From the NCBI RefSeq assembly GCF_029504745.1, contig NZ_JAQFIQ010000021.1, positions 8,923 through 40,922 of the forward strand: a DNA stretch of 32,000 nucleotides, read 5' to 3'. Shown piece after piece: positions 2,791 to 32,000 of the stretch; within the stretch, counting starts at the first letter, position 1, and each line of letters opens with the position of its first letter. The notes beneath the pieces were generated by a model. That model had not been told where the DNA came from. It ran no database searches and saw nothing but the letters and a program-made list of their open reading frames with translations. The translations under genes were made by a program, and so were the position numbers. This stretch comes from Breznakia sp. PF5-3. Its GTDB lineage: Bacteria > Bacillota_I > Bacilli_A > Erysipelotrichales > Erysipelotrichaceae.

Positions 2791-3241
2791 AAATGTGATT
2801 TTATCAATACTTGTAGTTTGTATCACTAGTGGTTGCTTCCTATTAGAAAATGAAAATTTAATGGTTTGTGAATATCAACCATTAAAGGATTATTTAGATT
2901 ATGAAGTATATTATTCGGATGATGAGATTACAAAGGTTAAAATTATTACGGTTATGAACTATAAAGATTTATCAAAAAAAGAATTAGAAGAAAAAAAAGA
3001 TGATTGGAAAAAAATCATCAAAAGTTATAATGAAGAAGATGGGATAGATGCCGAAATACAAGTAGATTTGGCAATCATTACAACGACAGTACAAGTCAAT
3101 ATTGATAAATACGATGCAATTAAGGATCCACTGCAAGTATTTAATTTAACATTTGAAGAAAAGGATTTTGAATCTGTTGAATCTTTTAGAAAAAAAGTAC
3201 AAGATAATTACTTTAAATGTGATCAACTTGTAGAAAATTAA
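2777..3241 (+). CDS. Putative lipoprotein, function unknown
   Basis: From ATG 2777 the product starts MKRIRNVILSILVVCITSGC: basic n-region, hydrophobic core and a lipobox-like ITSGC. The remainder is hydrophilic and Lys/Glu-rich. It overlaps the upstream gene by 14 nt. The track start at 2753 is less likely. Confidence 0.55.
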   Translation: MKRIRNVILSILVVCITSGCFLLENENLMVCEYQPLKDYLDYEVYYSDDEITKVKIITVMNYKDLSKKELEEKKDDWKKIIKSYNEEDGIDAEIQVDLAIITTTVQVNIDKYDAIKDPLQVFNLTFEEKDFESVESFRKKVQDNYFKCDQLVEN

Positions 3242-3245
3242 AGAA

Positions 3246-3417
3246 AAAAAGAAAAGAAGCACATAATTATGAGGAGCGCTTCTTTTCTTTTTGTGTGTGT
3301 TTATAAGGGGATAGAAATGTATGTAATAGGGATAACATACATGCAAGGTAACTACCTTGCACTATTACTATATAAAATTGAAACCTTTCAATTATCTTAG
3401 CTTTTTGTGAAAGTATG
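3246..3417. repeat. Copy 1 of a duplicated ~170-nt intergenic module (terminator plus two conserved hairpins plus optional 27-codon sORF)
   Basis: Aligns with 8806-8974. 72 nt are identical (3279-3350 = 8836-8907), followed by 2 substitutions and then 21 identical nt. Hairpins: ATGTATGT-N10-ACATACAT and GCAAGGT-N4-ACCTTGC. An sORF at 3317-3400 (+) is preceded by AAGGGGA. Confidence 0.85.
3251..3292. terminator. Rho-independent terminator after the lipoprotein gene, bidirectional in appearance
   Basis: Stem GAAAAGAAGC (3251-3260) pairs with GCTTCTTTTC (3278-3287). It is followed by TTTTT on the + strand and preceded by an A-run (a T-run on the - strand). Confidence 0.75.
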
Positions 3418-3543
3418 GGAAATGAAATTTTTAATTATGAAAAAAGTATGAAAGAAAATGGAAATCATAAAAAGTTTACAGTGCAAGTCAGTAGAAGGCA
3501 CATATATACTTTAGTATACTTGATATAAGAATGGAGTATGGAT

Positions 3544-6063
3544 ATGAAAATAAAAAAGCGAGATAATACATTACAAGATTATAATAAAGAAAAAATTATG
3601 AAAGCGATTAAAGCAGCATTTGCAAGTCAGAATAATGATATTGATGAAACGGTGCTAATAGAAATTGTAAAGTCAATTGAAGATATTCTTATGAATGATA
3701 GAACTTTGCACAATGTAGAACACATTCAGGATTTAGTAGAAGAGAAGTTAATGGAGCATCAGTTTTATAAAGAAGCCAAAGCATATATTTTATATCGCCA
3801 AAAGCATACGGAAGAGCGTGAACTATTAGTAAAATTTGAAGCGATTGTGAAAGATGAACAATTGATAGAAGTAATGAGAAAAATACAGCGAGATTTTGGA
3901 GATGAAGTGTATTCTTTGGAACTTTTGTATCAAAAATTTCAATCTTTTATTAAAGTGGATATGAGTAAAGATGAACAATTGGAAATGTTGATGAAAGCCA
4001 GTGCTGAATTGATTAGTAAGCAAGCACCAAAATGGGAATTTATTGCAGCACGGTTTTTAACTTATCAATTAAATGCACAAATTGACTCACAAATGATGAA
4101 ATTGAATATTCATAGTTTTGCTGAAAAGATAGCATATCTTGAAAGTGAAGGGTACTATGGAAAGTATATAAGAGAAGCATATCAAGATGATGAGATAGCT
4201 GAATTGGAAACTTATATGAAAGAAGAACGTAATTATTTATTTACATATAGTGGTTTAGAACTTGTTGTGAAACGTTATCTTATTCAAAATAATGATCATG
4301 ATGTGCTTGAGAAAGTACAAGAGATGTTTATGGGGATCGCTATGCATTTAGCAATTCCCGAGAAAGAAAAGAAGGTATCGTGGGCGAAAGAAATTTATGA
4401 CATTCTTAGTACTTTAAAAGTAACGATGGCAACACCAACAATGTCAAATGCTAGAAAGCCTTATCACCAATTGTCTTCTTGCTTTATTGATACAGTGGGA
4501 GATTCTTTAACGAATATCTATAAGAGTATAGATAACTTTGCACAAGTATCAAAGTTTGGTGGTGGTATGGGATTGTACTTTGGAAAAGTGCGAGCAATTG
4601 GTTCTGATATCCGAGGCTTCAAAGGAGCCGCTGGAGGGGTTATTCGTTGGATTAAGTTAGTGAATGACACAGCAACAGCTGTTGATCAACTAGGAATGCG
4701 CCAAGGTGCTGTAGCTGTATATTTGGATGCATGGCATAAAGATTTACCAGAGTTTTTATCATTACGCACAAACAACGGAGACGATCGTATGAAAGCGCAT
4801 GATGTATTTCCAGCGGTTTGTTATCCTGATTTGTTTTGGAAGCTAGCAAAAGAAAATATTGATGCTGAATGGTCATTGATGTGTCCTCATGAAATTTTGA
4901 AAGTAAAAGGCTATGCATTAGAAGATTCTTTTGGCAAAGAGTGGGAAGAAAAGTACTGGGATTGTGTACAAGATATAAGAATTTCAAAAAGAGTAATGAA
5001 GGTTAAAGATTTGATTCGTTTAATTTTAAAGTCTGCAGTTGAAACAGGAACACCTTTTACCTTTAATCGTGACCATGTAAATGCTATGAATCCCAATCCT
5101 CATCAAGGAATGATTTATTGTAGCAATTTATGTACAGAAATTGCACAAAATATGCATGAAATTGAAATGCTTCCTAAAGAGATTATCAAGGTAGATGATG
5201 AAGAAATCATTGTAGAGAAAAGTAAGCCTGGGGATTTTGTAGTTTGTAATCTAGCATCATTAATTTTAGGTAATATTGATGTTGAAAATCAAACAGAATT
5301 AAAGCATACAATTGATGTAGTAGTAAGAGCACTTGATAATGTAATTGATTTAAATTATTATCCAGTCCCATATGCTGAGGTAACCAATCAAAAATATCGT
5401 TCAATTGGATTGGGAACGAGTGGGTATCATCACATGTTGAGTAAACATGGGATTGCATTTGAATCAGAAGAACATTTAACCTTTGTTGATAAAGTATATG
5501 ATGATATCAACTATTATACAATTCATGCTAGTATGGAATTAGCAAAAGAAAAAGACTACTATTCGTTATTTAAGGGTAGTGATTGGGATAATGGTGCATA
5601 TTTTGATAAACGAAATTATACAAGTGAAAGATGGACAGAATTAAGAGCTGATGTAAAACAATATGGAATTCGTAATGCATATCTTATGGCTATTGCTCCT
5701 ACAAGTTCTACGTCTATTATTGCGGGAACAACAGCTGCGGTAGATCCAATTATGAATAAATACTTTTTAGAAGAAAAGAAAGGTAGCATGATTGCTAGAG
5801 TTGCACCAGATCTTGATGGTAAAACATATTGGTTATATAAAAATGCTCATCAGATTGACCAACGATGGGTAATTGATGCGGCAGGAATTCGTCAACGTCA
5901 TATCGATCAAGCACAATCTGTGAATTTATATGTTACTAATGAGTATCGAATGTCAGAGCTTTTAAATCTATATATTAGAGCATGGGAACGTGGTGTGAAG
6001 ACAATTTATTATGTTAGAAGTAAAGCATTAGAAGTAGAAGAATGTGAATCATGTGCATCATAA
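3544..6063 (+). CDS. nrdA: Ribonucleoside-diphosphate reductase, class I alpha subunit with N-terminal ATP-cone
   Basis: N-terminal ATP-cone-like segment (KRDNTLQDYNKEKIMKAIKAAF ... AYILYRQKH). Catalytic signatures SSCFI, CSNLCTEI, GLGTSGYH and APTSSTS, plus C-terminal redox-shuttle cysteines CESCAS. ATG 3544 is preferred because GGAG (3533-3536) lies 7 nt upstream; the track's ATG 3538 is only 1 nt from it. Confidence 0.9.
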   Translation: MKIKKRDNTLQDYNKEKIMKAIKAAFASQNNDIDETVLIEIVKSIEDILMNDRTLHNVEHIQDLVEEKLMEHQFYKEAKAYILYRQKHTEERELLVKFEAIVKDEQLIEVMRKIQRDFGDEVYSLELLYQKFQSFIKVDMSKDEQLEMLMKASAELISKQAPKWEFIAARFLTYQLNAQIDSQMMKLNIHSFAEKIAYLESEGYYGKYIREAYQDDEIAELETYMKEERNYLFTYSGLELVVKRYLIQNNDHDVLEKVQEMFMGIAMHLAIPEKEKKVSWAKEIYDILSTLKVTMATPTMSNARKPYHQLSSCFIDTVGDSLTNIYKSIDNFAQVSKFGGGMGLYFGKVRAIGSDIRGFKGAAGGVIRWIKLVNDTATAVDQLGMRQGAVAVYLDAWHKDLPEFLSLRTNNGDDRMKAHDVFPAVCYPDLFWKLAKENIDAEWSLMCPHEILKVKGYALEDSFGKEWEEKYWDCVQDIRISKRVMKVKDLIRLILKSAVETGTPFTFNRDHVNAMNPNPHQGMIYCSNLCTEIAQNMHEIEMLPKEIIKVDDEEIIVEKSKPGDFVVCNLASLILGNIDVENQTELKHTIDVVVRALDNVIDLNYYPVPYAEVTNQKYRSIGLGTSGYHHMLSKHGIAFESEEHLTFVDKVYDDINYYTIHASMELAKEKDYYSLFKGSDWDNGAYFDKRNYTSERWTELRADVKQYGIRNAYLMAIAPTSSTSIIAGTTAAVDPIMNKYFLEEKKGSMIARVAPDLDGKTYWLYKNAHQIDQRWVIDAAGIRQRHIDQAQSVNLYVTNEYRMSELLNLYIRAWERGVKTIYYVRSKALEVEECESCAS

Positions 6064-14438: not shown

Positions 14439-14795
14439 ATGTTGAAATATAAATATGGTATTATTATGTATATGATGACAATCATTACCTTTTTATTATT
14501 TTTACAAGTATATGCTTTTTTATCTAGCTTGGTAACTTTAGCAATCTTTTTCGTATATAAATTTATGCGATACCCAAACTACGATATAGATCGTTTTTTT
14601 CTTGTTGTAAATCGAAATGTGCTACTTCTTTTACTTGGTAGTGGTGAGATTATACAATGCTCTTTAGCAGCATTTTTTGTTTACTATTGGTATGGCAGTG
14701 TTAAAATAACCAGTGTTTTTATAGTGATTGTTGTTATTTTTTCGATTATAAAGTTCTACTATTTACAAAAACATAAAAATTATGACGGCAGTTAA
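14439..14795 (+). CDS. Small hydrophobic membrane protein (3-4 TM), function unknown
   Basis: Strongly hydrophobic ORF ending just upstream of a terminator. The start is uncertain (ATGs at 14439, 14466 and 14472) and no clear SD is present. Confidence 0.45.
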   Translation: MLKYKYGIIMYMMTIITFLLFLQVYAFLSSLVTLAIFFVYKFMRYPNYDIDRFFLVVNRNVLLLLLGSGEIIQCSLAAFFVYYWYGSVKITSVFIVIVVIFSIIKFYYLQKHKNYDGS

Positions 14796-16098: not shown

Positions 16099-16434
16099 TT
16101 AATCATAAATTGTAAAACCTTCTTGAAGAAATACTTCATTAAAGGAATCTAATAATAATCGTTCATGATGGCTATGTTGGTATACATCTTCTTTTGGTGC
16201 TCCACCAATAGCGACATGTGCTTCGATATTGTTGTTTTCAATATCAAATGTTATTAGAAACATAAGGTTACTTTCATCATCATGATGTTCACCTATGATA
16301 TTGATTAAAACATTATCTAATGTCATTTTTGATGAAAGAATACGTCTTCGATTTGTAATAGGTAACTTATCTTGAATTGCTTTCACTTTGTTTGCAAGGC
16401 GTTCTCCTTCATATTGATAATATTGGTTAATCAT
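16099..16434 (-). CDS. Hypothetical protein (111 aa)
   Basis: ORF trimmed to ATG 16434, which is preceded by a strong SD (AAAGGGGGA) with 6-nt spacing. No recognisable motif. Confidence 0.6.
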   Translation of the reverse strand: MINQYYQYEGERLANKVKAIQDKLPITNRRRILSSKMTLDNVLINIIGEHHDDESNLMFLITFDIENNNIEAHVAIGGAPKEDVYQHSHHERLLLDSFNEVFLQEGFTIYD

Positions 16435-16502
16435 AAATATCCCCCTTTTTCTTTCCAGCTTTATCATATCATTAAACGCTAGTTTCATCTATTGAGGTAC
16501 AT

Positions 16503-17957: not shown

Positions 17958-18374
17958 TTAAAAAACGTTTCCTTTCTTAGTGAGTTTCATTTTCTGTTTA
18001 TCTGTATTTTGATTGTAATTAGCTAAATAACCTATTAACCTTTTTCGGATTATTAGATCTCGAAATAACAATGCAGAGAATGCAAATGCAAAAAGTAATG
18101 CAATAGTTAGAATCATTTCTAGTAAAGTGGTTGAAATACTAGTTTGTATTAAATTATTGAGAAAAAGAAAAATTGGTACAAAAATCAAAACCGTTAAACA
18201 AACTATAACAAAGTAATCAACTTTATTTATAGCGATTCTGCTTTTTTTACCACAATGAGGGCATTCCTTATTTCCCTTGACTTTCTTAACGCGATTTTTC
18301 ACATAGCTTAAAGCAATGTGATTACCACAATGGGGACATGTGAAGTATAATTCATCATTATTTAAATCAGACAT
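17958..18374 (-). CDS. Membrane protein with an N-terminal double CxxC zinc ribbon and two TM helices
   Basis: CPHC ... CPHC is followed by two hydrophobic helices. ATG 18374 is preferred because TAAGGAGA lies 6 nt upstream of it. Confidence 0.6.
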   Translation of the reverse strand: MSDLNNDELYFTCPHCGNHIALSYVKNRVKKVKGNKECPHCGKKSRIAINKVDYFVIVCLTVLIFVPIFLFLNNLIQTSISTTLLEMILTIALLFAFAFSALLFRDLIIRKRLIGYLANYNQNTDKQKMKLTKKGNVF

Positions 18375-18708
18375 ATGATATCTCCTTATATGCAAGAATT
18401 ATAGCATAATAGAAATAAAGAAAGTAGAGGAATAGGAAAAGAAAAGGATATTAGAAAAAGTAAATGGTGGTTAGGATGTTCTTAAAATAAAGCTTGATAG
18501 TAGAGGTTGGACAAAATAGGTTGCATATGCACATATAGAGAATAAAGCTCCATATGTCTACAGAGGAAGCTTTAATTACTTTGAAAACAAATGCTGGAAA
18601 ATATATGGATAAATGGCTATGTTATGTTTTAATATATGAAGTAAAAGACTAAAAAGACTTACTCTCATAATTGTTGAGGGTAGTTTTTTTTGAATGTTCA
18701 ATATATTC

Positions 18709-18774: not shown

Positions 18775-19788
18775 ATGAAAAAAAGAATAATGATTATGTT
18801 TTCTGCTTTTTTGGTTTTTACATTAGTGCTTACAATGAATAGTGCTACTTTGAGCGCAAGTAACCAAAATGTTTATGAATTCGCAGGGGGAAAGTTTACT
18901 CTGGAACGGTTTGATATAGTTGAAACTGATACAGAAATAATTGTGACTGAAATAGCAAAATTAGAAGTAGAAGACGGTTTGGAAATTGGAGAAAGATTCA
19001 ATTTTCTTAGTGGATATTTGCCCAAAAATGGATTATTCACTCAAAGGATGCCGAGAATTACACTAATATACAATGATATAATTGTCCTGGATTGTGACAA
19101 CACAAATACGTATGTTAATAAGCTTTATGATTATGGTTACTCTAATGGTGCAGCAATAAATGGTAATGTGGAGAGCTATGGATGGTGTTTAAATAGAGAT
19201 GGAAAATTAAAATCTGGAATATATAAAAAAACATATACTTATAGCAAAGATTATTTTAGTAGGAATCAATTTGATAATTTAGTATCATGTGTTTCAAATG
19301 GCTTTGATGTGGTAAAAACAGAAGGAATTAAATACACTTCTCCAAACGCAGGTAGCTTTACACCAGATATGACAATCAATCATGTCAATGGAGATACTTA
19401 TACAGGTGAACAACCATATATAACTAGTGTTAATTATGATAAAGATTTATTTAGTAATGTATTGATTGATGGTGAAGTGGTAGATTCATCAAACTATGAA
19501 GTTACATTGGGAAGTACAGTGGTAACTTTTAAGGATGAATATATGAAATCATTACCTTATGGGGAACATAATATAGCAATTCAATATTCAAATGGTTTAG
19601 CAGCAGAAGGAGCATTCAACATGAATTATATAGTTCCAAAGCCTGCACCAACTCCAACACCTAATAAAGCATCAGGAAAAGATGCTCCAGAAACTAATGA
19701 TACATCAAATGCAAAACTTATGATTTCGTTGTTATTAGTAGCAGGGTTGATTAGTATAAATACTATAAAAAGAAAAATAGAACAATAA
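18775..19788 (+). CDS. Secreted or cell-surface protein with a signal peptide and a C-terminal hydrophobic anchor
   Basis: N-terminus MKKRIMIMFSAFLVFTLVLTMNSATLSA. A Pro/Thr linker PKPAPTPTPN is followed by the C-terminus APETNDTSNAKLMISLLLVAGLISINTIKRKIEQ, which is shaped like a sortase signal but lacks LPxTG. Confidence 0.7.
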   Translation: MKKRIMIMFSAFLVFTLVLTMNSATLSASNQNVYEFAGGKFTLERFDIVETDTEIIVTEIAKLEVEDGLEIGERFNFLSGYLPKNGLFTQRMPRITLIYNDIIVLDCDNTNTYVNKLYDYGYSNGAAINGNVESYGWCLNRDGKLKSGIYKKTYTYSKDYFSRNQFDNLVSCVSNGFDVVKTEGIKYTSPNAGSFTPDMTINHVNGDTYTGEQPYITSVNYDKDLFSNVLIDGEVVDSSNYEVTLGSTVVTFKDEYMKSLPYGEHNIAIQYSNGLAAEGAFNMNYIVPKPAPTPTPNKASGKDAPETNDTSNAKLMISLLLVAGLISINTIKRKIEQ

Positions 19789-19790
19789 TA

Positions 19791-19817
19791 AAAGCTACTC
19801 ATTCGTAGCTTTTTTAT
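19791..19817 (+). terminator. Rho-independent terminator
   Basis: AAAAGCTAC-tcattc-GTAGCTTTT followed by a T-run. Confidence 0.75.
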
Positions 19818-20084
19818 TTACTTCCTTTTAAAAGCCCTACTGTATGATCTCCTTTAGGTTTTACTCCACTTAGTTTTCCAAAAATTCCATCAATTTGCAG
19901 ATTTTTCCATAGGCGCTACCAAATGTCACGTTTCACCGACTATTTTTACACAAATGTATAAAAAGATGATATATTATAACTATTAAATGATAGATGTAGC
20001 CATATAGGATTTGATAAAAAGAAAAGAAGGAAAAAATGAAAAAACTTAAAATTAATTCATACTCAAAAAAAGATATTCAGGAGG

Positions 20085-20297
20085 CACAGCAACTTATGTT
20101 GTAACTTTAACTAGATCTGCTATGGGAAGTATCCAGATAAAGTAGATTATACTTTTACTTATAAAACAACGGATAGCGGAACTCCATTCTCTGTAGGTGG
20201 AGACAATGACTCAAATATACTTGTTACAGTAAGCGAGGGTGAGCCATATGATATTGTAGAATTTGGTGTTCCACAAAGTAACATGATATTGGAATAG
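20085..20297 (+). pseudogene. Frameshifted remnant of a surface/pilin-like protein gene
   Basis: Two short protein-like frames are interrupted by stops: GTATYVVTLTRSAMGS... and VDYTFTYKTTDSGTPFSVGGDNDSNILVTVSEGEPYDIVEFGVPQ. No intact ORF is present. Confidence 0.35.
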
Positions 20298-20336
20298 AAT
20301 AGAAATAGTAATAGAATTTTGAAAAGAGGAATATTT

Positions 20337-20468
20337 ATGAAAAATCAGAAATTTTCAAATAAAATGAATCAATTGAATAATGATAATAAGTCTTATGCAC
20401 TTGGCAGATTACTAATTACATTAGGGATCATCATAGTAATTTTTATCATATGGTTGTTTACTAATTAG
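20337..20468 (+). CDS. Possible 43-aa single-TM peptide
   Basis: ATG preceded by AAGAGGA (7-nt spacing). The product MKNQKFSNKMNQLNNDNKSYALGRLLITLGIIIVIFIIWLFTN has a polar head and one TM helix. It is below the ORF-track size cutoff. Confidence 0.35.
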   Translation: MKNQKFSNKMNQLNNDNKSYALGRLLITLGIIIVIFIIWLFTN

Positions 20469-20719
20469 AGAATATTTTAGGATTTCTTTTCTATATATTA
20501 TGTATACTATTGAGGTGATAATATATACGATATATTGATAGACTTGAGCGATGGCAATATATCATATGAAGAGGCGTTTGAAATCATTATTGATGCGATT
20601 TGTTTTGACGACATTTATGTGATAAAACATGATAAAAATTTAGAAATTAACAATTCTATTAGATAAATAAAAAAAGTGTTTAAACCTTTAAATTAAGGAT
20701 TAAGCACTATTTTTTCAAA

Positions 20720-20795
20720 TGGTGGTCCCGGTCGGAATCGAACCAACGACACAAGGATTTTCAGTCCTTTGCTCTACCGACTGAGCTACGGGACC
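20720..20795 (-). tRNA. tRNA-Phe (GAA)
   Basis: The reverse complement GGTCCCGTAGCTCAGTCGGTAGAGCAAAGGACTGAAAATCCTT...GGTTCGATTCCGACCGGGACCACCA folds as a cloverleaf. The anticodon loop is CTGAAAA and CCA is encoded. Confidence 0.9.
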
Positions 20796-20798
20796 ATT

Positions 20799-20875
<77 letters not shown>

Positions 20876-20901
20876 ATAAATGGTATACTAAATTTTAAGA
20901 A

Positions 20902-20992
20902 TGGCGGAGGAACTGGGATTCGAACCCAGGCGCCAGTTTCCCGACCTACCGGTTTTCAAGACCGGACCCTTCAGCCACTTGGGTATTCCTCC
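20902..20992 (-). tRNA. tRNA-Ser (UGA)
   Basis: 91 nt with a long variable arm. The anticodon loop is CTTGAAA and CCA is encoded. Confidence 0.9.
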
Positions 20993-21012
20993 AAATAGAT
21001 TCTTTTTTTAAA

Positions 21013-21089
21013 TGGTGGACCCTACAGGACTCGAACCTGTGACCCACCGGTTATGAGCCGGATGCTCTGACCAACTGAGCTAAGGGTCC
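21013..21089 (-). tRNA. tRNA with CAU anticodon, most likely tRNA-Ile2 (lysidine-modified)
   Basis: The reverse complement is GGACCCTTAGCTCAGTTGGTCAGAGCATCCGGCTCATAACCGG.... From memory, the GGACC..TTAGCTCAGTTGGT.AGAGCA body resembles Bacillus tRNA-Ile(CAU) rather than elongator Met. Confidence 0.7.
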
Positions 21090-21109
21090 AGCTTAAGCAT
21101 TAAATAAAA

Positions 21110-21186
21110 TGGTGGCTGAAGTGAGACTCGAACTCACGACCTTCCGGGTATGAACCGGATGCTCTAGCCAGCTAAGCTACCCAGCC
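21110..21186 (-). tRNA. Elongator tRNA-Met (CAU)
   Basis: The reverse complement is GGCTGGGTAGCTTAGCTGGCTAGAGCATCCGGTTCATACCCGG.... The anticodon loop is TTCATAC and CCA is encoded. Confidence 0.8.
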
Positions 21187-21196
21187 AAAATTTTAA

Positions 21197-21273
21197 TGGT
21201 CGGGAAGACAGGATTCGAACCTGCGACCCCCTGGTCCCAAACCAGGTGCACTACCAAGCTGTGCTACTTCCCG
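21197..21273 (-). tRNA. tRNA-Pro (UGG)
   Basis: The reverse complement is CGGGAAGTAGCACAGCTTGGTAGTGCACCTGGTTTGGGACCAGG.... The anticodon is TGG. Confidence 0.9.
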
Positions 21274-21292
21274 AATACTCTAAATAAATAAA

Positions 21293-21369
<77 letters not shown>

Positions 21370-23672: not shown

Positions 23673-24443
23673 TTATACCTCCTTTTTAAATAGTGTACCT
23701 ACTTTTTTGTTTTCAATAACATCATAGATAACATTTAAGTCTTTACTGTTACAAATTACCATATCACATCCAGCACTTGTAGCAATTTTTGCTGCTGCTA
23801 ATTTTGTAATCATACCACCAGTACCAACTTTATTTGTAGTGTCTTCAGCCATATCTTCAATCTCTTTAGTTACCTTTTCAACTATTGGGATAAGTTTAGC
23901 ATCAGGATAACAACTTGGATTTTTATCATAAAGACCATCGATATCACTTAAAACAATCAACATTTCTGCGTTAATTAGCTGTGCAGTGATTGCTCCCAAG
24001 GTATCATTGTCTCCATATACAAGTTCTTCTGTTGCTACACTATCATTTTCGTTAATAATAGGAATACTACGATATTGTAGTAGTGTTTCCAATGTATTGG
24101 TAGCATTTTCTCTTAAGGTACTATCTACAACAACGCGTTTTGTCATTAGCATTTGTCCTACAATTTTTCCAAATTGTGAAAAAAACTTATCATATATATA
24201 CATTAATTCACATTGTCCAATAGCAGCAACTGCTTGCTTGTTAAATAAAGTTGAGGGGGCTGAGGTCATTTGCATTTTTCCCATACCAGCAGCAACGGAT
24301 CCGCTGCTAACTAGGATTACTTCCATACCTTGATTACTCAAGTCACTAATAATCTTTGTGAGTTCTTCAATTTTTCTTAGGTTCAACAAACCATTCTCAT
24401 AAGCAATGGTACTGGAACCAACTTTAATTACAATTCTTTTCAT
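23673..24443 (-). CDS. proB: Glutamate 5-kinase (short form without PUA domain)
   Basis: Amino-acid-kinase fold motifs IVIKVGSS, VSSGSVAAG and GDNDTLGA. At 256 aa it lacks a C-terminal PUA extension. Confidence 0.9.
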   Translation of the reverse strand: MKRIVIKVGSSTIAYENGLLNLRKIEELTKIISDLSNQGMEVILVSSGSVAAGMGKMQMTSAPSTLFNKQAVAAIGQCELMYIYDKFFSQFGKIVGQMLMTKRVVVDSTLRENATNTLETLLQYRSIPIINENDSVATEELVYGDNDTLGAITAQLINAEMLIVLSDIDGLYDKNPSCYPDAKLIPIVEKVTKEIEDMAEDTTNKVGTGGMITKLAAAKIATSAGCDMVICNSKDLNVIYDVIENKKVGTLFKKEV

Positions 24444-24473
24444 AATAAGTTCACCTCAACTATAATTTTAACC

Positions 24474-24502
24474 ATTATACCGTAAGATATAAGGAATAAC
24501 AA
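24474..24502 (-). promoter_or_regulatory. SigA promoter of proBA with a short leader
   Basis: On the minus strand: TTGTTA (24502-24497), a 17-nt spacer, then TATAAT (24479-24474). A ~30-nt leader carries a GAGGTG SD. Confidence 0.6.
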
Positions 24503-24812
24503 CGAAAACTAAAAATTCATAGAATCATACTATATATAGGAAAGAAAATATTTAATTATTTCTTATATATTGATGATTTGTGACAATTCATGAAACACTT
24601 ATAACAAATAATATTTATTTTGGTAAAAAAGGCGTATAGTATAATCATAAATAATCATCTATTATTTGAGGGCGTAAATGATAATGAGTATTTCATGAAG
24701 GACATTATTTTAAGACAGGTTAGGCTTCGTTGAATTTTTTTATAAATTATTATATTTAATAAACTGAAACTACAGTTTATTTTAATTTTTTTAAAAGTAA
24801 TAAAAACAAAAT

Positions 24813-24837
24813 GAACTTATTCACTGTAATTTACGAC
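24813..24837 (+). promoter_or_regulatory. ECF-type promoter (GAAC-N17-CGAC) upstream of the bactofilin-sigma operon
   Basis: GAAC at 24813-24816 and CGAC at 24834-24837, exactly 17 nt apart. The downstream CGACTATAAATTGAGAGG is near-identical to the second copy at 27541. Confidence 0.6.
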
Positions 24838-24994
24838 TATAAATTGAGAGGGTGTGTATCCAAGGAAGATAGTGGCGTATGTATTATGGGATAAGTTCGT
24901 TTTTTTAGTATATTAAAGTATTTATAATAACAAAGTTATCAGGTTATTATGAAAATAGCATATTTCTTATATTGGGAGCAAGAGGAGAAAAGAC

Positions 24995-26050
24995 ATGGAT
25001 ATATTGACAGGGGCTAACATATTTTCGTTTAATGTAATAATTGCAATTTTATCATTTGTAATCGCAGTATTAATAATTACGTATATCATACGTAAGATTC
25101 TTTTATATCAATTGAAAAAGGAAATCGAATTAGCAGTAGATGTGTATGAAACTCTTTATCAAGAAGTAAATAGTAGTGAATGGGAATATTTGTCAAACTT
25201 AGCGAAACATGATAAGCAAATAGACATGTTGCTTGAACAAAGTAATATGCATGATAATTATAATAGGTTATCTGAAGATTTAAGAGCTTGTAAGTTGTTA
25301 CTTAATGATTTTAATGCACAAAACCTAGGAGATATGGATCGAAGAACAGTAAACTCTACGTTAACATTTATCAATGGATTGATGGATAATATGGAAGATA
25401 CGATTTCAGATTTTTATCATGCTTGTATCCAGCAAACACAGTCTTTAAAATTAGATTCTAAAGTAGATGTGATTCAAAAACATGAGCAAGTGGAACCAAA
25501 ACGTCAACCAGTACAACAAAGCGTAAAATCTTTAAATAAAGAAATAGTGAAACCAAAAACTAGCAATGAAGAACCAAAGCCTAAAGTTGATCAACGACCA
25601 AATATAATAATGCAGGATTTAAAAGGAAATGAAGGTGTTTCAATAATTTCATCACAAACAAAGATAGATGGAAATATTATTGCGAAAGAAGAAGTAATGA
25701 TACTAGGAAAGGTAAATGGATCTGTAAAATCAGAAAAATATATAGAAATTGATGCAGATGCGCAAATCAAGGGAAAACTTATTGCTCCTATGGTGCATAT
25801 AAAAAGTGGTAGTTTACTTTGTGATATTTTAGCTTCAAAACAAATATTTATATCGGAAAAGGGATATATAAAAGGAAATATTGAAACGCAAGACATTGTA
25901 GTTGCTGGAACTATTGAAGGGAATATGAAGACAAGTAGTTTAAATGTAAATGAAAGTGCAAAGATTTTTGGTGATATTTATACCAATGTAATTGAAATAG
26001 AAAAAGGTGCACAAATCAGTGGGGAATTTACGATGACTCAAGAAGCATAA
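24995..26050 (+). CDS. Membrane-anchored bactofilin-domain (DUF583/CcmA-like) protein
   Basis: An N-terminal TM helix (IFSFNVIIAILSFVIAVLIITYII) is followed by RK. Next come a helical region, a Lys/Pro-rich linker, and a C-terminal ~130 aa of bactofilin-type beta-helix repeats (IDGNIIAKEEVMILGKVNGSVKS ... IKGKLIAP ... IKGNIETQDIVVAGTIEGNM ... IFGDIYTNVIEIEKGAQISGEF). GAGGAG SD. Confidence 0.8.
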   Translation: MDILTGANIFSFNVIIAILSFVIAVLIITYIIRKILLYQLKKEIELAVDVYETLYQEVNSSEWEYLSNLAKHDKQIDMLLEQSNMHDNYNRLSEDLRACKLLLNDFNAQNLGDMDRRTVNSTLTFINGLMDNMEDTISDFYHACIQQTQSLKLDSKVDVIQKHEQVEPKRQPVQQSVKSLNKEIVKPKTSNEEPKPKVDQRPNIIMQDLKGNEGVSIISSQTKIDGNIIAKEEVMILGKVNGSVKSEKYIEIDADAQIKGKLIAPMVHIKSGSLLCDILASKQIFISEKGYIKGNIETQDIVVAGTIEGNMKTSSLNVNESAKIFGDIYTNVIEIEKGAQISGEFTMTQEA

Positions 26051-26147
26051 TGCAAAGAATAGAATAAAGCGAATAAGATATAAGGATAGTTACATATGTA
26101 TATAGAAGATGTCAGTAGAATATTTTATAAATAATAAGGGGGACAAT

Positions 26148-27515
26148 ATGGAAACTAAAAGAATAAGTCATGAAGTCATTCAAGCATTCAAAGATGGAAG
26201 TGAAGAAGCGTTTGCGAAAATTTATGATCACTATTTTAATCGAGTGTTGTTTTTTGCTTATAATCATTTGAGTGATACGGATTTAGCACAAGATGTGGTG
26301 CAAAATACTTTTCTCTCTGTATATCGAGGTATTAGCAAATTGCAACACCTTGAAGCTTTTCATGCTTGGATTATGCGAATTGCATATTGTGAGTGTCAGA
26401 ATATATATAGAAAGAATAAAATCAAAACCGTTGATTTGCCAGAGTATATGGACATTGATGCTCTAGAGGATAATAAGAGTGATACAATTGATGAACAGAT
26501 GGAGGATAAGGTTCTTCAAGATATTGTTTCTAAAGAAATAAAAATGATGAATAATAAGATAAAAGATGTTGCCATTCTTAAATATTTAGAGGGATTAAGT
26601 GAGAAGGAGATATCAGGAATTTTAAGAATTCCTAAAGGAACTGTTAAAAGTAGAACATATAAAGCTAAGGTTATTCTTCAAGATAGTTTAAAGAAAAATG
26701 GAATAACTCCAGGTACATATAAAACATATGGTTTTTCAATTCCTACTATTTTTGTTTCTGCTTGTTACTACATGCAAACGCAAATACCTACTGTACAGCC
26801 AGATTACACAACGATTGTGAACACTGCAAAAGGAATTGGTGGTGGAATAGGATTAGCAACTGGAATTAGTGCAGTTAATGGTTCAACAGCTAAAATTGGC
26901 GGATCTATGGCAAAACGATTAATTACAGGAGGAGTTGTTGCCACAATTACAATTTCTGGAGGTCTTTTATTGAATAGAGCCCCAACTGTTGCAGTCGGAG
27001 TGAATCCAGTTCATCTAGATAAAAAAGCTCCTGCTGTTGCACCAGAGAAGTGTCAAATACAAGATGTTATCTATAGTGAAGAATTTACAAATCAACTTGT
27101 ACATGTAGAAGTGAAAGTAACCAATGATAACTACGATGAGATATTAATTAATGGTGTACAAACTCAAGAGATTCATGAAAATGGGGATTATGTAATCCAA
27201 ATTATGTTTGAAGGAAACGTTGTAGATGAAAGAGTTATTTCGATAAACAATATTGATAGAACACCAACGGAATATCTTGGCTATTCTGCTGATGGAAACG
27301 TATATACAGTTTATTTAAATGATACCCAATCGAAAATAAATCCAGCCATGATTAAATATTATAAAAATGGACAATTGAATACGAACTTTACTTTTAATCA
27401 AGAAACGCAAACCATTCATTTTAATTATGAAGATTATACGGAAAATATTTTTGAAATACATGATAACGCAGGAAACGTAGTGGATGTTACAGTTGTTTCT
27501 AAATATTTGAAATAA
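26148..27515 (+). CDS. ECF-type sigma-70 family factor fused to hydrophobic/TM segments and a C-terminal ~190-aa probable extracytoplasmic Ig-like domain
   Basis: Region 2 (DLAQDVVQNTFLSVYRGI ... HAWIMRIAY) and region 4 HTH (LSEKEISGILRIPKGTVKSRTYKAKVIL) lie in the first ~195 aa. Hydrophobic and Gly-rich segments follow (FSIPTIFVSACYYM, GIGGGIGLATGISAV, LITGGVVATITISGGLLL), then a beta-rich tail. ATG 26148 is preceded by AAGGGGGA; the track start at 26109 is less likely. Confidence 0.8.
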   Translation: METKRISHEVIQAFKDGSEEAFAKIYDHYFNRVLFFAYNHLSDTDLAQDVVQNTFLSVYRGISKLQHLEAFHAWIMRIAYCECQNIYRKNKIKTVDLPEYMDIDALEDNKSDTIDEQMEDKVLQDIVSKEIKMMNNKIKDVAILKYLEGLSEKEISGILRIPKGTVKSRTYKAKVILQDSLKKNGITPGTYKTYGFSIPTIFVSACYYMQTQIPTVQPDYTTIVNTAKGIGGGIGLATGISAVNGSTAKIGGSMAKRLITGGVVATITISGGLLLNRAPTVAVGVNPVHLDKKAPAVAPEKCQIQDVIYSEEFTNQLVHVEVKVTNDNYDEILINGVQTQEIHENGDYVIQIMFEGNVVDERVISINNIDRTPTEYLGYSADGNVYTVYLNDTQSKINPAMIKYYKNGQLNTNFTFNQETQTIHFNYEDYTENIFEIHDNAGNVVDVTVVSKYLK

Positions 27516-27519
27516 TTTC

Positions 27520-27544
27520 GAACCTTTTAAAATGAAGTAGCGAC
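27520..27544 (+). promoter_or_regulatory. Second ECF-type promoter (GAAC-N17-CGAC) upstream of the giant surface-protein gene
   Basis: GAAC at 27520-27523 and CGAC at 27541-27544, 17 nt apart, followed by CGACTTTAATACTGAGATGG. It starts 5 nt after the sigma gene stop and lies 57 nt upstream of ATG 27601. Confidence 0.6.
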
Positions 27545-27600
27545 TTTAATACTGAGATGGATTAAAAATTCCATTGAGTATTGTAAGGATGGAGGAAAAA

Positions 27601-30600
27601 ATGGTCAAAAGAGAAAAGAAAAAAGGAAACTTAACATCTTATTTCTACAAACTTTTTGTTGTGTTCTTGGCAGCATTTATGATGCTTACAAGTTTACCAA
27701 CAGAAATATTTGCGAGTGCTAATGAGACATCTTCGCAAACAGTTGAAAAAACAGATGCTAGTGTTTCTAATTCAAATGAAAGCAATTTGAATGAAACAAC
27801 GAATCTTCATGATGAAGATTCTAATGGTAATTTATGGCTTAGCTTTATGCGAAGTCCGCTTAAACCTAGAGGAAATGGAGATGCTCCCGATTATGGGCAA
27901 GTATCTGCAGTTCGTTTTACACAAGCCGATCAAGGATTGTTGAGTGGACTTGCATTAGATACCAATGGAAAAGTATGGACATGGGGATATAATGAACATG
28001 GTATCCAAGGGTGTGGCTATACTGCTACTGGTATGTATAATGGTGGTATGAAACGTATCCCATACTTTACAGAAAACGATATTAATATTGTTTCTATTGA
28101 AAGTGGATATTATACTGCATATGCAATTGATGATAAAGGTCAAGTATATGTATGGGGACGTGGAATTGAAGGTCAGATGGGAGATGGTTCAAACCGTAGT
28201 GTTAACCAAACTCCAAAACCAATCGCAGCATTATCAGGTGTTAAAATTAGAAAAATAGTAACTGGTATTGAAGCGGCATCTCATACGTACGCAATGGCTG
28301 AAGATGGTCGTATTTTTGCATGGGGATATGCAGATAACAATAGAATTCCAAATAGTGGTGTTTATGTTACTACACCAAAAGAAATGACAAGTTTAAATGG
28401 GTTAAATATTGTTGATATATCATTAGGTGATGCACACTGTATGTTCCTTAGCAAAGATGGAAAAGTGTACACACAAGGATATGGTTATCAAGGTCGACTT
28501 GGACATGGAAACACAACAAATGTGAATTATCCTAAAGAAGTTGAATGGTTTGCAAATAACAATAAAAAAGTTGTGCAAATTTCAGCTTCAACAAATTCAA
28601 GTTTAGCCCTTACTGAAGATGGTAAAATTTACCAATGGGGTCATATAGCAACAAGTGTTGGTGGATTTACAACAATGTTAACACCTACAGAAGTAGGTAT
28701 AGATTTAACAAGTAATCCATATGGATATACACCAGAGTGGCAAAAAATTATCTGTGGGCGTTATACAAGCTATGTAATTGATACACATGGTCGTGTTTGG
28801 AGTTGGGGATCAAATGTTTTCTATTCTTTTTCAACCGATGGACCGATGGCACCAGCAAATGTTGGAGCAGGAAATCCAGATCCAACTAGATATGGGAAAT
28901 TACATGAAGTTCGTTTAAAAGCGACAATGCAACCTCTTACCATGGGTGATGGAGATACTCAAGAATATATTCAAGCAGTAAAGGGACCAGTTTTTTCAAA
29001 TTGGCCTACAAGCGGTGCTTATGGTACATACATGAATGAAACGATAAATACATATCGTTGGTGGGGGAATTTCTCTGATATAGCAAATGGAATGCATCCT
29101 ACAATTTATGATAAAAAATATTGTAAAACCGTTGGGGAGTTTTCAAATAATAATCCAACAACTTTAGCTGCGTTAGCAACAGCGCATTCAAAAGTGTATC
29201 TAGTGGATGAGAAGGACAGAAGACTAGTATATGTAGTTAGAAAAGATGGAGCTAGTACAATTTCGGGAAACTATTATGTAGCTGAAGATAGTTATACTGG
29301 GACTTGGTTGGTAGACAATCGTTCAACATATGATCTTCCATCAGGAGTAACAGAAGAAACAAGTGTTCCAGCAATTAAAGAAAAAGAAAAAGGTTGGATT
29401 GGTCTTGCAGTCGACTTAGAAACTCATAATTGGACTGGACATAATATGAAACAAACTCCTTATATGATAGATATTAGTACATATCAATCTTCAAGTTTAT
29501 ATGTTGATGCTTCAGGTAACTTGTACAAAACAACGTATGATGGCGCCGGAGCTATTGCTTGGGGTTGGGATAATGAACTTTATGATTTACATACAGGAAG
29601 TGTTAGACCAGGAGAAGGATTATATAATAAGTATAATCATGAGTTAGTATTTATGAGAGGTGCACCAATGGTAACGCCTGTAGATGTTACCATTCAAAAG
29701 AGTACATCAAAAATTTACCAAACAGAGGGTAATACAAAAAGTGATAAAGTAACTGTAAAAGCAGATATTCCAGCAGCATATGTAGATGAAGATATGAATA
29801 TTAAATTTACATCGGATTTACGAGATGTAAAATATGTATTTGTTCCATATGATAAATCAAATCCAGATTTTAATATTGCTGATGATGAATTGACAATTGA
29901 TCAATTTAATGCAATGTATAATAATTCCGCATATACGAAGAAAGCAGATTTATTAGACGACACGATCAGTGGTGGTGATGATGGTAAAGAATGGAAAGAT
30001 GAAATAGAAATAACTGAGAATGGTAGAATTTATGTGTTAACAGTAGATAATGCTTATGGTAAAGTTACAAATACTTTAAAAGCATATACTGCAGATAACT
30101 TCTATACACCAGCAGTTATTGAACATGTTGGAAATGGATATGTAGATGGAAAAATCTATGAAGAAATTTATGCTCCAACAAGTGAAAATGTTACTAAGAC
30201 AAAAGAGGGAACAGATACTTCGGATGTATATGGAGTGCCTTTAGATGCTAAAGGAAATGTAATTGAAAACCCTACTTTTGGATATGATAAAGTGAAAGTC
30301 GAAAAATATGATGTTCTTCCAAATGGTGAAGATAAATATTGGTTATTTAGTACACCACAAGATGGCTCATTATCATTGACATTGGATGATAAAAAATATG
30401 TTGATGAAGATTTTACACATGAGTTTAAATACGAAAGAAATCCATCAGGATGGATAACAATTAGTTATGAAGGAAAAGATATAGATTCAGGTCTAGCTTT
30501 ACCTGCATTTAGTATGGATCCAAATCCTGAGATTGTAAAAATTGATAAAGAATTAACTAGAACTCCTCCAGAAATTTCAGATTATGAGATATTAGGATAC

Positions 30601-32000
30601 AATGTAAATACAGATAAGACAATCTATAATTTAGACAGTTCTGGCGACCTTGTGTATACGCCTACTGAAGATACAGTAATTACATTCTTATATGGAACAT
30701 GGAGCGAAAATAGTGAAAAAACAGTTGTAGATAAAAATGGAGATGGATATGCATCTCCTGGAGAAGAATTAACGTATACTCTAACTTATGAAAATGAAGG
30801 TAGTGGATCAGCAAAAAATGTTCTTATCCAAGATGAATTAAAAACCGTATTACCATATGTAGAGGATCCAAAAGCAGGATCTGTTACAGTTAATAATAAT
30901 GGTGCTATTACAACACACACAGTGCAAGATTTAATTGATGGAATCCCTATTGATAAAATTGCTGGGAAAACAAAAGTTACTGTTGTATTCAAGGTAAAAG
31001 TAAAAGCAGACTTAGATGTAGATACAGTAAAAGAAATTGTGAATAAATCAACAGTTGGTGAAAGCATTATTCTAACAGGAAAAGCAGAACTACAATCAGC
31101 TAAGAAAGTAGTGGATGCAAGTGGAGATGGAGTAGCATCACCAGGAGAAAAACTGACATATACAATTATCTCGAAAAACAATGGACCAGCAGATGCAAGC
31201 GATTTATTGGTAAAAGATGAAATGACTGGAGTGGTAGGACACATTAACGAAACACCATCAGCAGTAAACATCAACGTGACAATAGATGGAGCACCAGTAG
31301 GAAATTATACATTACAAGACTTGATTGATGGAATCACAATTGACAAGTTAGCGAAAGATAAGACATTGAGTGTAAGTTTCGCAGTAACAGTAAAAGATGA
31401 TTTAGATGTAAGTAAAGTAAACAAGATAGCGAACACAGCAACAGTTGGAGATACAAAACCAACGATTGAAATTCCAACGGGAAAAGTTGAACTTTCTACA
31501 AGCAAAACAGTAAGTGATGCAAGTGGCGATAATATTGCAGCTCCTGGAGAAGAATTGACATATGTGATTACCGCTAAAAACTCAGGTGCAGCTACGTCAA
31601 GCGAATTAACACTAAAAGATGAACTAACAAATGTGTTAGGAAATGTAGACGAGAGTGCGGCAAGCATCGTAGTAACAGTGAAGAGTGACAAGGATGCAAC
31701 TAAGAATGGAACAGTAAGTGGAAGTGAGTTAGTAACAGGATTGAAATACAAGTTACAAGCAAATGAAACACTGACATTGACATTCAAAGTAAATGTAAAA
31801 GCAGACTTAGATACAACGAAAGTTAAGAAGATAGCGAATAAAGCTACCATTGGAGATCAAAGTCCAACTGCAGAAATTCCAACCGGAATAAGTGATCTTA
31901 CATCAGCAGTGAAGAGTGTAAGTGACGCAAATGGGGATGGATATGCATCACCAGGCGAAGAATTGACATACACAATAACAGCTACAAATGAAGGAACAGT
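27601..32000 (+). CDS. Giant secreted protein (5' partial, >1466 aa): signal peptide, RCC1-like beta-propeller, unassigned middle region, tandem DUF11/TIGR01451-type repeats
   Basis: Hand translation of frame 1 from ATG 27601 (GGAGG at 27590-27594) to 32000 shows no stop codon. The signal peptide is KKKGNLTSYFYKLFVVFLAAFMMLTSLPTEIFASA. RCC1-type blades: GKVWTWGYNEHG, GQVYVWGRGIEGQMGDG, GRIFAWGYADNN, GKVYTQGYGYQGRLGHG, GKIYQWGH, GRVWSWGSN. C-terminal repeats carry GDGYASPGEELTYT. The ORF is not in the supplied track because it has no stop inside the window. Confidence 0.9.
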   Translation, partial: MVKREKKKGNLTSYFYKLFVVFLAAFMMLTSLPTEIFASANETSSQTVEKTDASVSNSNESNLNETTNLHDEDSNGNLWLSFMRSPLKPRGNGDAPDYGQVSAVRFTQADQGLLSGLALDTNGKVWTWGYNEHGIQGCGYTATGMYNGGMKRIPYFTENDINIVSIESGYYTAYAIDDKGQVYVWGRGIEGQMGDGSNRSVNQTPKPIAALSGVKIRKIVTGIEAASHTYAMAEDGRIFAWGYADNNRIPNSGVYVTTPKEMTSLNGLNIVDISLGDAHCMFLSKDGKVYTQGYGYQGRLGHGNTTNVNYPKEVEWFANNNKKVVQISASTNSSLALTEDGKIYQWGHIATSVGGFTTMLTPTEVGIDLTSNPYGYTPEWQKIICGRYTSYVIDTHGRVWSWGSNVFYSFSTDGPMAPANVGAGNPDPTRYGKLHEVRLKATMQPLTMGDGDTQEYIQAVKGPVFSNWPTSGAYGTYMNETINTYRWWGNFSDIANGMHPTIYDKKYCKTVGEFSNNNPTTLAALATAHSKVYLVDEKDRRLVYVVRKDGASTISGNYYVAEDSYTGTWLVDNRSTYDLPSGVTEETSVPAIKEKEKGWIGLAVDLETHNWTGHNMKQTPYMIDISTYQSSSLYVDASGNLYKTTYDGAGAIAWGWDNELYDLHTGSVRPGEGLYNKYNHELVFMRGAPMVTPVDVTIQKSTSKIYQTEGNTKSDKVTVKADIPAAYVDEDMNIKFTSDLRDVKYVFVPYDKSNPDFNIADDELTIDQFNAMYNNSAYTKKADLLDDTISGGDDGKEWKDEIEITENGRIYVLTVDNAYGKVTNTLKAYTADNFYTPAVIEHVGNGYVDGKIYEEIYAPTSENVTKTKEGTDTSDVYGVPLDAKGNVIENPTFGYDKVKVEKYDVLPNGEDKYWLFSTPQDGSLSLTLDDKKYVDEDFTHEFKYERNPSGWITISYEGKDIDSGLALPAFSMDPNPEIVKIDKELTRTPPEISDYEILGYNVNTDKTIYNLDSSGDLVYTPTEDTVITFLYGTWSENSEKTVVDKNGDGYASPGEELTYTLTYENEGSGSAKNVLIQDELKTVLPYVEDPKAGSVTVNNNGAITTHTVQDLIDGIPIDKIAGKTKVTVVFKVKVKADLDVDTVKEIVNKSTVGESIILTGKAELQSAKKVVDASGDGVASPGEKLTYTIISKNNGPADASDLLVKDEMTGVVGHINETPSAVNINVTIDGAPVGNYTLQDLIDGITIDKLAKDKTLSVSFAVTVKDDLDVSKVNKIANTATVGDTKPTIEIPTGKVELSTSKTVSDASGDNIAAPGEELTYVITAKNSGAATSSELTLKDELTNVLGNVDESAASIVVTVKSDKDATKNGTVSGSELVTGLKYKLQANETLTLTFKVNVKADLDTTKVKKIANKATIGDQSPTAEIPTGISDLTSAVKSVSDANGDGYASPGEELTYTITATNEGT
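30715..32000 (+). repeat. Tandem ~128-136-codon coding repeats (DUF11 / 'conserved repeat domain' modules) within the giant gene
   Basis: Units start at about 30715, 31099, 31501 and 31906. Each has D-x-(N/S)-G-D-G-x-A-S-P-G-E-x-L-T-Y-T-I ... (K/Q)D-E-(L/M) ... V-K-A/D-D-L-D ... N-x-A-T-V/I-G-D. The fourth unit is cut by the window end. Confidence 0.85.

Follow-up and report, generated by a model that had tools for sequence, protein, structure and literature searches.

Sigma factors of the extracytoplasmic function (ECF) class that span the membrane as a single polypeptide form a small set, already established by IutY of Pseudomonas putida and by groups ECF48, ECF52, and ECF53 of Actinobacteria. 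Here, we compare with these proteins a gene found in a 32,000-nucleotide (nt) stretch of the Breznakia sp. PF5-3 genome (contig NZ_JAQFIQ010000021.1, positions 8,923 to 40,922; this whole stretch is called the window below), the product of which joins an ECF sigma factor, a predicted transmembrane helix, and a tandem immunoglobulin-like (Ig-like) ectodomain. The new features of this fusion are the lack of a recognisable anti-sigma domain and the Ig-tandem ectodomain.

IutY, assigned to group ECF243, is a FecI/FecR-type sigma/anti-sigma hybrid (PMC5411451, PMC8999054), the only hybrid of this kind to have been characterised, that is released from the membrane by Prc and then RseP (PMC5411451). 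As is predicted for the Breznakia fusion, it is one polypeptide whose N-terminal ECF sigma lies in the cytoplasm and whose C-terminal domain, beyond a single span, is extracytoplasmic. It differs in that its periplasmic anti-sigma domain is of the FecR type and its signal comes from a TonB-dependent receptor of the outer membrane, in its Gram-negative host, and in its role in iron uptake, whereas the fusion has no Pfam match outside the sigma domains (E ≤ 1), carries the Ig tandem, belongs to a Gram-positive-type lineage, and has an adhesin gene as its predicted target. No FecR-type domain was matched by Pfam in the fusion (E ≤ 1), and its gene neighbours are bactofilin and surface-protein genes.

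The actinobacterial groups ECF52 (SCO4117), ECF48, and ECF53 share with the fusion a long C-terminal extension with one or two spans and an extracytoplasmic domain (PMC8999054, PMC5826349), and they are likewise thought to need proteolytic activation (PMC8999054). They differ from it by a zinc-finger (ZAS-type) anti-sigma domain placed between the sigma and the membrane, and ECF52 differs further by a Pro-rich region and a carbohydrate-binding domain. The fusion, in contrast, shows no zf-HC2 match and no HxxxCxxC motif, its linker is poorly conserved, and its ectodomain is an Ig tandem. Proteins of group ECF263 possess five or seven membrane spans.

Among two-protein systems, the anti-sigma factors of the SigV/RsiV and SigP/RsiP pairs of Firmicutes resemble the fusion in their single pass, N-terminus inside, and folded ectodomain; signal peptidase makes the site-1 cut in RsiV and RsiP, immediately outside the membrane, and RasP acts subsequently (PMC4183432, PMC6066255, PMC8844934). 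In these pairs the sigma and the anti-sigma are separate proteins, the ectodomains are of other kinds (lysozyme is bound by that of RsiV), and genes for envelope resistance are the targets. Judged by analogy, RsiV and RsiP are a likely working analogue for the fusion. The SigI/RsgI systems of Clostridium thermocellum and Bacillus comprise multiple paralogous sigma–sensor pairs per genome, with extracellular binding modules and dedicated surface or extracellular targets. SigI is not an ECF sigma, however, and its partner RsgI, which has an RsgI_N domain, is made as a protein of its own.

We read the Breznakia protein, with moderate confidence, as a membrane-tethered, self-activating ECF sigma factor that is dedicated to the adjoining adhesin gene and released by proteolysis. 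The few one-component ECF sigmas that span the membrane would thereby gain a Gram-positive family specific to Erysipelotrichales. Its circuit is compact (a sigma gene, a giant adhesin gene, and two predicted promoters) and can help to answer how a tethered sigma is turned off and on. Current ideas are not overturned, the principle having been set by IutY and ECF52.

Architecture of the fusion and its family

The gene and its parts are as follows (AF2, AlphaFold2 model; pLDDT, predicted local distance difference test).

26136..26142 (+): ribosome-binding site AAGGGGG, 5 nt before ATG 26148, read from the sequence
26148..27515 (+): whole gene, fusion of ECF sigma, transmembrane helix, and tandem Ig-like domains, 455 amino acids (aa)
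26220..26420 (+): sigma-70 region 2, residues 25–91; PF04542 Sigma70_r2, 41.3 bits, cut-off 24
26574..26669 (+): sigma-70 region 4.2, residues 143–174, its helix continuing to residue 183; PF08281 Sigma70_r4_2, 30.4 bits, cut-off 25.7
26697..26918 (+): cytoplasmic juxtamembrane linker, residues 184–257, about 70–75 aa; pLDDT < 50, poorly conserved family-wide
26919..26975 (+): predicted single transmembrane helix, residues 258–276, LITGGVVATITISGGLLLN, Gly/Ser/Thr-rich; mean Kyte–Doolittle hydropathy 1.63
26976..27047 (+): variable extracytoplasmic stalk, residues 277–300, ~25 aa, probably disordered; pLDDT < 50, gappy, poorly conserved
27048..27506 (+): tandem Ig-like beta-sandwich ectodomain, about residues 301–369 and 370–453; AF2

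The reading frame is open already from ATG 26109 on the plus strand and closes with the TAA stop at 27513–27515. The functional start is almost certainly ATG 26148 rather than ATG 26109, since the ribosome-binding site 5 nt upstream, the N-termini of the homologues, and the database entry of an identical protein (455 aa) all agree.

A first-pass annotation, made from the letters of the sequence, had read complete sigma region 2 and region 4 motifs here and had noted that the same open reading frame (ORF) runs on past them without a stop. Both statements held: the two regions exceeded their Pfam thresholds, and the uninterrupted architecture recurs in about 87 clusters of related proteins. The Pfam scan also returned PF07638 (Sigma70_ECF) with 26.9 bits against a cut-off of 21.1, and the general NCBIfam model for ECF sigmas, TIGR02937, scored 76.1 against 42.9; every match to the NCBIfam equivalog models fell far under its cut-off (104 bits against 208 for the best of them). 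Neither Sigma70_r3 nor region 1 (sigma1.1) gave a Pfam match in the fusion protein at E ≤ 1. In the full-length AF2 model the sigma helices had pLDDT values of about 70–87 (75–87 for the helices of region 2), and the sigma2–sigma4 linker of ~25–30 residues (residues 92–120) had low ones. The GTVKSR motif of region 4.2 is kept throughout the family. By these domain matches, the sigma module is a complete ECF (group 4) sigma-70 factor, consisting of sigma2 and sigma4 without sigma3.

The C-terminal part had been described as a beta-rich tail of ~190 aa resembling bacterial Ig-like surface domains. The Ig fold was borne out; the folded part proved shorter, ~155 aa (residues 301–453), and follows the stalk of ~25 aa. 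Residues 301–455 were all beta with pLDDT > 90 in the full-length AF2 model, and the C-terminal 158 residues modelled separately (pLDDT 93.8) gave 13 strands in two sandwiches, which meet at a conserved NNIDxxxP junction. Structure prediction for this part was a check that the first-pass annotation had itself proposed. A Foldseek comparison with the PDB returned tandem Ig, FN3, or cadherin-like modules only (probability 0.97–1.0), including the SraP cadherin-like modules (4m03), the SiiE BIg domains (2yn3, 2yn5), and MDGA1 Ig1-2; with a best E of 1.6e-3 and TM-scores of at most 0.53, these are generic fold matches and point to no specific family. In the models, the fold class of the ectodomain is clear, a tandem Ig-like beta-sandwich.

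Sequence profiles gave a different picture of the two halves of the protein. The Sigma70_r2 and Sigma70_r4_2 searches that the same annotation had suggested were positive, and those with Big/Ig-like families were not: none of the 11 ectodomains scanned matched an Ig-type Pfam family (Big_x, Cadherin-like, BiPBP_C, DUF7743) at E ≤ 1. A PDB profile search with the ectodomain sequence produced nothing below E 0.03, and no Pfam or NCBIfam model covers the domain. The domain combination, which had not been recognised as a known family, is indeed undescribed in the sources consulted. The databases label the homologues merely 'sigma-70 family RNA polymerase sigma factor', and literature searches on membrane-tethered sigma factors, on Breznakia sigma factors, and on bactofilin with anti-sigma brought up no description of the fusion family. 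Several Asn/Asp-rich motifs are conserved in the ectodomain (NDNYD, ENGxY, NNIDxxxP, DxxSG, and DxAGN); as sequences, they appear to resemble the calcium-binding linkers of cadherin-like domains.

Two hydrophobic stretches had been put forward as membrane segments, and only one of them survived. The stretch at 26920–26973 falls in residues 258–276, which form the sole 19-residue hydrophobic window common to 15/15 family members. The stretch at 26731–26775 (residues ~196–210) was rejected as a second span: it is only weakly hydrophobic in the window's protein (Kyte–Doolittle mean < 1.0), and on the Hessa scale the insertion energies of its counterparts in the homologues add up to +6.6 to +11.2 kcal/mol. 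With such hydropathy and insertion energies, a membrane span at this place is not credible. Topology was assessed by hydropathy and positive-inside charge analysis. Exactly one window of mean hydropathy ≥ 1.6 was present in 74 of the 87 aligned representatives, and the flank on the sigma side (N-terminal) carried the more positive net charge in 79 of the 87, in agreement with the earlier proposal of an outside-facing C-terminal domain. The full-length AF2 model had pLDDT < 50 over residues 188–297, with a helix drawn at 255–274. On these sequence criteria, the protein probably crosses the membrane once, its N-terminus being inside and its C-terminus outside.

Between sigma4 and the span lies the juxtamembrane linker, of which the GITPxTYKTYGFSxPxLF segment is weakly hydrophobic and a further stretch is rich in Gly. 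No anti-sigma family, zf-HC2 and RsgI_N included, was matched by Pfam at E ≤ 1 in the fusion protein or in this part of it. The linker has one Cys and lacks a His–Cys motif. AF2 draws three short helices in residues 188–231 at pLDDT < 50, and no family match was obtained there.

A word-indexed search found 14 full-length homologues of the fusion with 32–52% identity, among them proteins of Breznakia pachnodae and of a Coprobacillaceae metagenome-assembled genome. When the ectodomain profile was run against 1.84 billion representative proteins, 699 matches at E ≤ 0.001 fell into two classes. The first comprises proteins of about 385–485 aa with the domain at the C-terminus, and all those inspected were sigma–transmembrane–Ig fusions. 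Alignment of 87 fusion cluster representatives (50% identity clusters), used for conservation and topology, showed high conservation in sigma2, sigma4, and the Ig tandem, the ectodomain being about as conserved as the sigma regions, and low conservation in residues 190–300 save for the hydrophobicity of the span. In the reference genomes, scanned with peptide patterns of the sigma region, full-length matches were limited to Breznakia pachnodae, B. blatticola, and a Coprobacillaceae assembly with at least three paralogues; elsewhere these patterns found mostly unrelated ECF sigmas, so that the scan does not delimit the taxonomic range. As judged from these sequences, the fusion is a genuine single-polypeptide family of Erysipelotrichales (Breznakia, Coprobacillaceae).

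The second class consists of giant proteins of 1,000–5,600 aa, in which the ectodomain unit is repeated 5–30 times. As wholes these proteins match BiPBP_C (E 1.3e-24) and DUF7743 (E 9e-12), with no single stretch significant. The Ig-tandem repeat is a candidate for a new, uncatalogued domain family. Two of the giant repeat proteins (L088 1305–8828 and L089 8001–15605; L numbers denote the loci compared) lie on contigs that also encode a helicase, a DNA methylase, a HicA toxin, and a Y1 transposase; neither contig has a sigma fusion nearby.

Four other proteins, P0016–P0019 (617–755 aa), are also sigma–transmembrane–ectodomain fusions, with thioredoxin-like or Kelch outside domains, and several of them have a hydrophobic segment directly after sigma4. 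Their sequences suggest that a broader, largely unstudied class of one-component membrane sigma factors exists.

Predicted promoters and neighbouring genes

The strongest functional evidence, a pair of ECF-type promoters and the adjoining adhesin gene, had been overlooked in the first-pass annotation. The elements concerned are listed below.

24813..24838 (+): P1, a predicted promoter of the ECF type (GAAC-N17-CGACT), 157 nt upstream of the bactofilin–sigma operon
24995..26050 (+): protein of 351 aa, anchored in the membrane by its N-terminus and continuing through a helical region and a linker rich in Lys and Pro to a bactofilin domain at the C-terminus (Pfam Bactofilin 86.7 bits, E 1.3e-24)
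27520..27545 (+): P2, a predicted promoter of the ECF type (GAACcttttaaaatgaagtagCGACT), beginning 5 nt after the sigma stop, before the giant surface-protein gene
27601..32000 (+): giant secreted protein, > 1,460 aa, running off the window end; signal peptide, RCC1 beta-propeller, DUF11/DUF7927 repeats

A -35 element containing AAC and a -10 element CGAC or CGTC, spaced by 16–17 nt, make up the classic ECF promoter layout, as for SigX and SigW of Bacillus subtilis. The motif GAAC-N17-CGACT has exactly two copies in the window against 0.03 expected from shuffles, both on the coding strand and at the two expected intergenic positions. P2 is followed by a GGAGG ribosome-binding site and ATG 27601. 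No terminator was predicted anywhere in 24300–27800. A third, relaxed motif match at 20922 was set aside as chance, since it lies inside the tRNA-Ser gene. Because the motif sits before the sigma's own operon and before the next gene, the predicted regulon consists of the bactofilin–sigma operon itself, under positive feedback, and the adjacent giant adhesin-like gene.

The motif occupies the same two positions in L001 and L007 (Breznakia pachnodae), L004, and L006, where an A-rich tract precedes it and TTTA follows CGACT. In L087 it stands upstream of the Flg_new-repeat surface-protein gene that precedes the sigma gene. Variants were found directly after the sigma stop in other loci: GGAACC/T-N16-18-GTCT or CTCT in L091 and L005, and GTGATC-N17-18-CG(A/T)CTTA in L002 and L090, the clade with VWA-domain genes.

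A third copy of the motif was noted in Breznakia pachnodae (L001 4835–4860, minus strand), facing a divergent gene at 2467–4791 that encodes a 774-aa protein without a Pfam or NCBIfam match. By the position of the motif, this gene may be an additional regulon member in B. pachnodae. The window has proB where L001 has the gene for the 774-aa protein, and no counterpart of the latter.

The first-pass annotation had remarked that no separate zf-HC2-type anti-sigma gene follows the sigma gene, which is correct, as the next gene, at 27601, encodes the giant secreted protein. The orthologue of this RCC1/DUF11 protein in B. pachnodae (L001) has 4,661 aa. A secreted or surface-protein gene adjoins the sigma gene in all nine of the distinct loci examined; L006 was left out of this count, its contig ending 126 nt after the sigma gene. 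The neighbours differ among loci.

Window, L001, L004: giant RCC1/DUF11 protein
L002/L003, L090: VWA-domain proteins, 509–529 aa
L005: 585-aa protein with faint Ig-type matches
L091: 804-aa Big_8/SpaA/Cna_B protein
L087: upstream genes for Flg_new and Big_3 proteins
L092: C-terminal end of a DUF11-type protein, upstream

A large family in which the surface-protein neighbour changes from member to member suggests modular control of adhesins in Erysipelotrichales of insect and animal guts. Homology shared by the sigma ectodomain and its target adhesin was also considered and rejected: when the downstream proteins of the window, L001, L004, L002, and L005 were searched, as far as they are visible, with a hidden Markov model of the ectodomain, no significant match resulted.

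The bactofilin gene is co-oriented with the sigma gene and lies 97 nt upstream of it. Bactofilin genes stand beside the sigma gene only in the Breznakia-like clade, namely in the window, L001, L004, and L006. The Breznakia loci have two bactofilin genes at the corresponding position. In two loci, a gene for a bacterial-type signal peptidase I (TIGR02227, 129 bits) is placed between the bactofilin and sigma genes (L001 7416–7988 and L004 8417–8989). Possible substrates of this Breznakia enzyme are the giant protein, which it might process, and the sigma, for which it might serve as site-1 protease.

Proposed activation of the tethered sigma

In the mechanism that we propose, the tether would hold the sigma at the membrane in a largely inactive state. 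An event at the ectodomain would make the stalk accessible to cleavage at site 1 (signal peptidase I is a possible candidate for this step), after which a site-2 intramembrane protease would cut the helix-destabilised span and set the sigma free. The freed sigma would then recognise GAAC-N17-CGACT in front of its own operon, giving positive feedback, and in front of the giant RCC1/DUF11 gene. Since the stalk is variable and disordered, it would be accessible to a protease, and the models make residues 277–300 a candidate site-1 cleavage region. Site-2 proteases require helix-destabilising residues in the membrane span, and the span of the fusions averages 5.7 Gly/Pro/Ser/Thr/Asn per 19 residues (87 representatives). 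Release is favoured because the span is rich in such residues, the stalk is disordered, a signal peptidase gene adjoins the sigma gene in Breznakia operons, and RsiV/RsiP, IutY, and the ECF48/52/53 fusions provide analogies; regulated proteolysis as the activation route is accordingly given, by analogy, an even chance or slightly better.

Several observations weigh against this mechanism. The part of the protein from sigma4 to the span, poorly conserved and with pLDDT < 50, shows no detectable anti-sigma domain, so how the tethered sigma would stay inactive is the weak point of the proposal. A conserved motif for signal peptidase was not demonstrated beyond the span, and the operon of the window contains no signal peptidase gene. 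The exact GAAC-N17-CGACT motif was not found in the distant loci L002, L003, and L005, which have variants only. Finally, an ectodomain as strongly conserved as this one in the alignment suggests a conserved partner, such as a cell-envelope component, a protease, or the ectodomain itself through self-association, in place of diverse ligands from the environment.

The lack of a detectable anti-sigma domain and the long, poorly conserved, low-confidence linker between sigma4 and the span would suit a sigma that is active while still attached to the membrane, in the manner of ToxR or CadC, the flexible linker of ~70 aa letting it join RNA polymerase. We regard this as unlikely, yet it is the alternative that fares best. 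Target promoters would be drawn to the membrane, coupling transcription, translation, and secretion of the adhesin, possibly at bactofilin-marked sites, and the ectodomain would tune the activity by its conformation or oligomerisation, not by cleavage. The nature of the predicted targets, which are membrane or secreted proteins (the transmembrane-anchored bactofilin and the giant protein, 4,661 aa in Breznakia), is in line with such a scheme, as is the highly conserved ectodomain, expected for a fixed partner or self-association. However, no tethered-active sigma was found in the literature on membrane-tethered sigma factors, and the characterised membrane-spanning sigma fusions covered by a review are all thought to need proteolytic release (PMC8999054). 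The Gly-rich span and the disordered stalk, moreover, fit a substrate of intramembrane proteolysis. A bolder form of the same idea, to which we attach a rather small chance, is that the sigma is never released at all: by recruiting RNA polymerase to the membrane, it would have the transcription, translation, and secretion of the giant adhesin take place at one spot, organised by the co-induced, membrane-anchored bactofilin, and the Ig tandem would report the state of the surface structure to the promoter.

Improbable, too, is a scheme in which the co-transcribed membrane-anchored bactofilin is the real regulator, its helical or bactofilin part sequestering the sigma as an anti-sigma platform and the fused transmembrane–Ig part mainly positioning the sigma beside it. 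A precedent exists in B. subtilis, where BacE/BacF recruit BacR to the membrane and inhibit its DNA binding (PMC13649987, 2026), and in the window, L001, L004, and L006 the predicted operon has bactofilin directly upstream. No bactofilin genes are present, however, at L002, L005, L087, L090, and L091, which keep the fusion and the adjacent surface-protein gene, nor was any anti-sigma family matched in the bactofilin protein. Since they are missing from the distant loci, the bactofilins are more likely members of the regulon than obligatory regulators.

That the fusion is an artefact or a pseudogene, in which a sequencing or assembly error merged a sigma and an anti-sigma gene, has a negligible chance of being true: on the L087 contig the region does fall into separate ORFs of 201 aa and 226 aa, but this split, which looks like a sigma/anti-sigma gene pair, is a frameshift at an A-run near L087:5925–5932, the downstream frame being open as far back as about L087:5932 and encoding there the post-sigma4 motif of the family, and the architecture is uninterrupted in the 14 full-length homologues and about 87 representative clusters. 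The reading of L087 as a natural split (a 201-aa sigma, then a 226-aa transmembrane–Ig protein), which would make the C-terminal half an anti-sigma, was dropped on the same ground, the frameshift being an assembly error or a sign of a pseudogene.

Other features of the window

The G+C content of the window is low, about 0.28–0.39 in 1-kb windows. Seven tRNA genes (Phe, Met, Ser, Met, Met, Pro, and Arg), three of them with a CAT anticodon, are clustered at 20720–21369 on the minus strand, preceded by about 930 nt without an ORF of at least 100 aa (19789–20719). Five ORFs of 118–337 aa had no Pfam match at E ≤ 1e-5; these lie at 18775–19788 (+), 2753–3241 (+), 14439–14795 (+), 16099–16488 (−), and 17958–18395 (−). 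The remainder of the window consists of ordinary chromosomal genes, including those for teichoic-acid synthesis, ribonucleotide reductase, MutY, a LuxR-type two-component system, and proBA.

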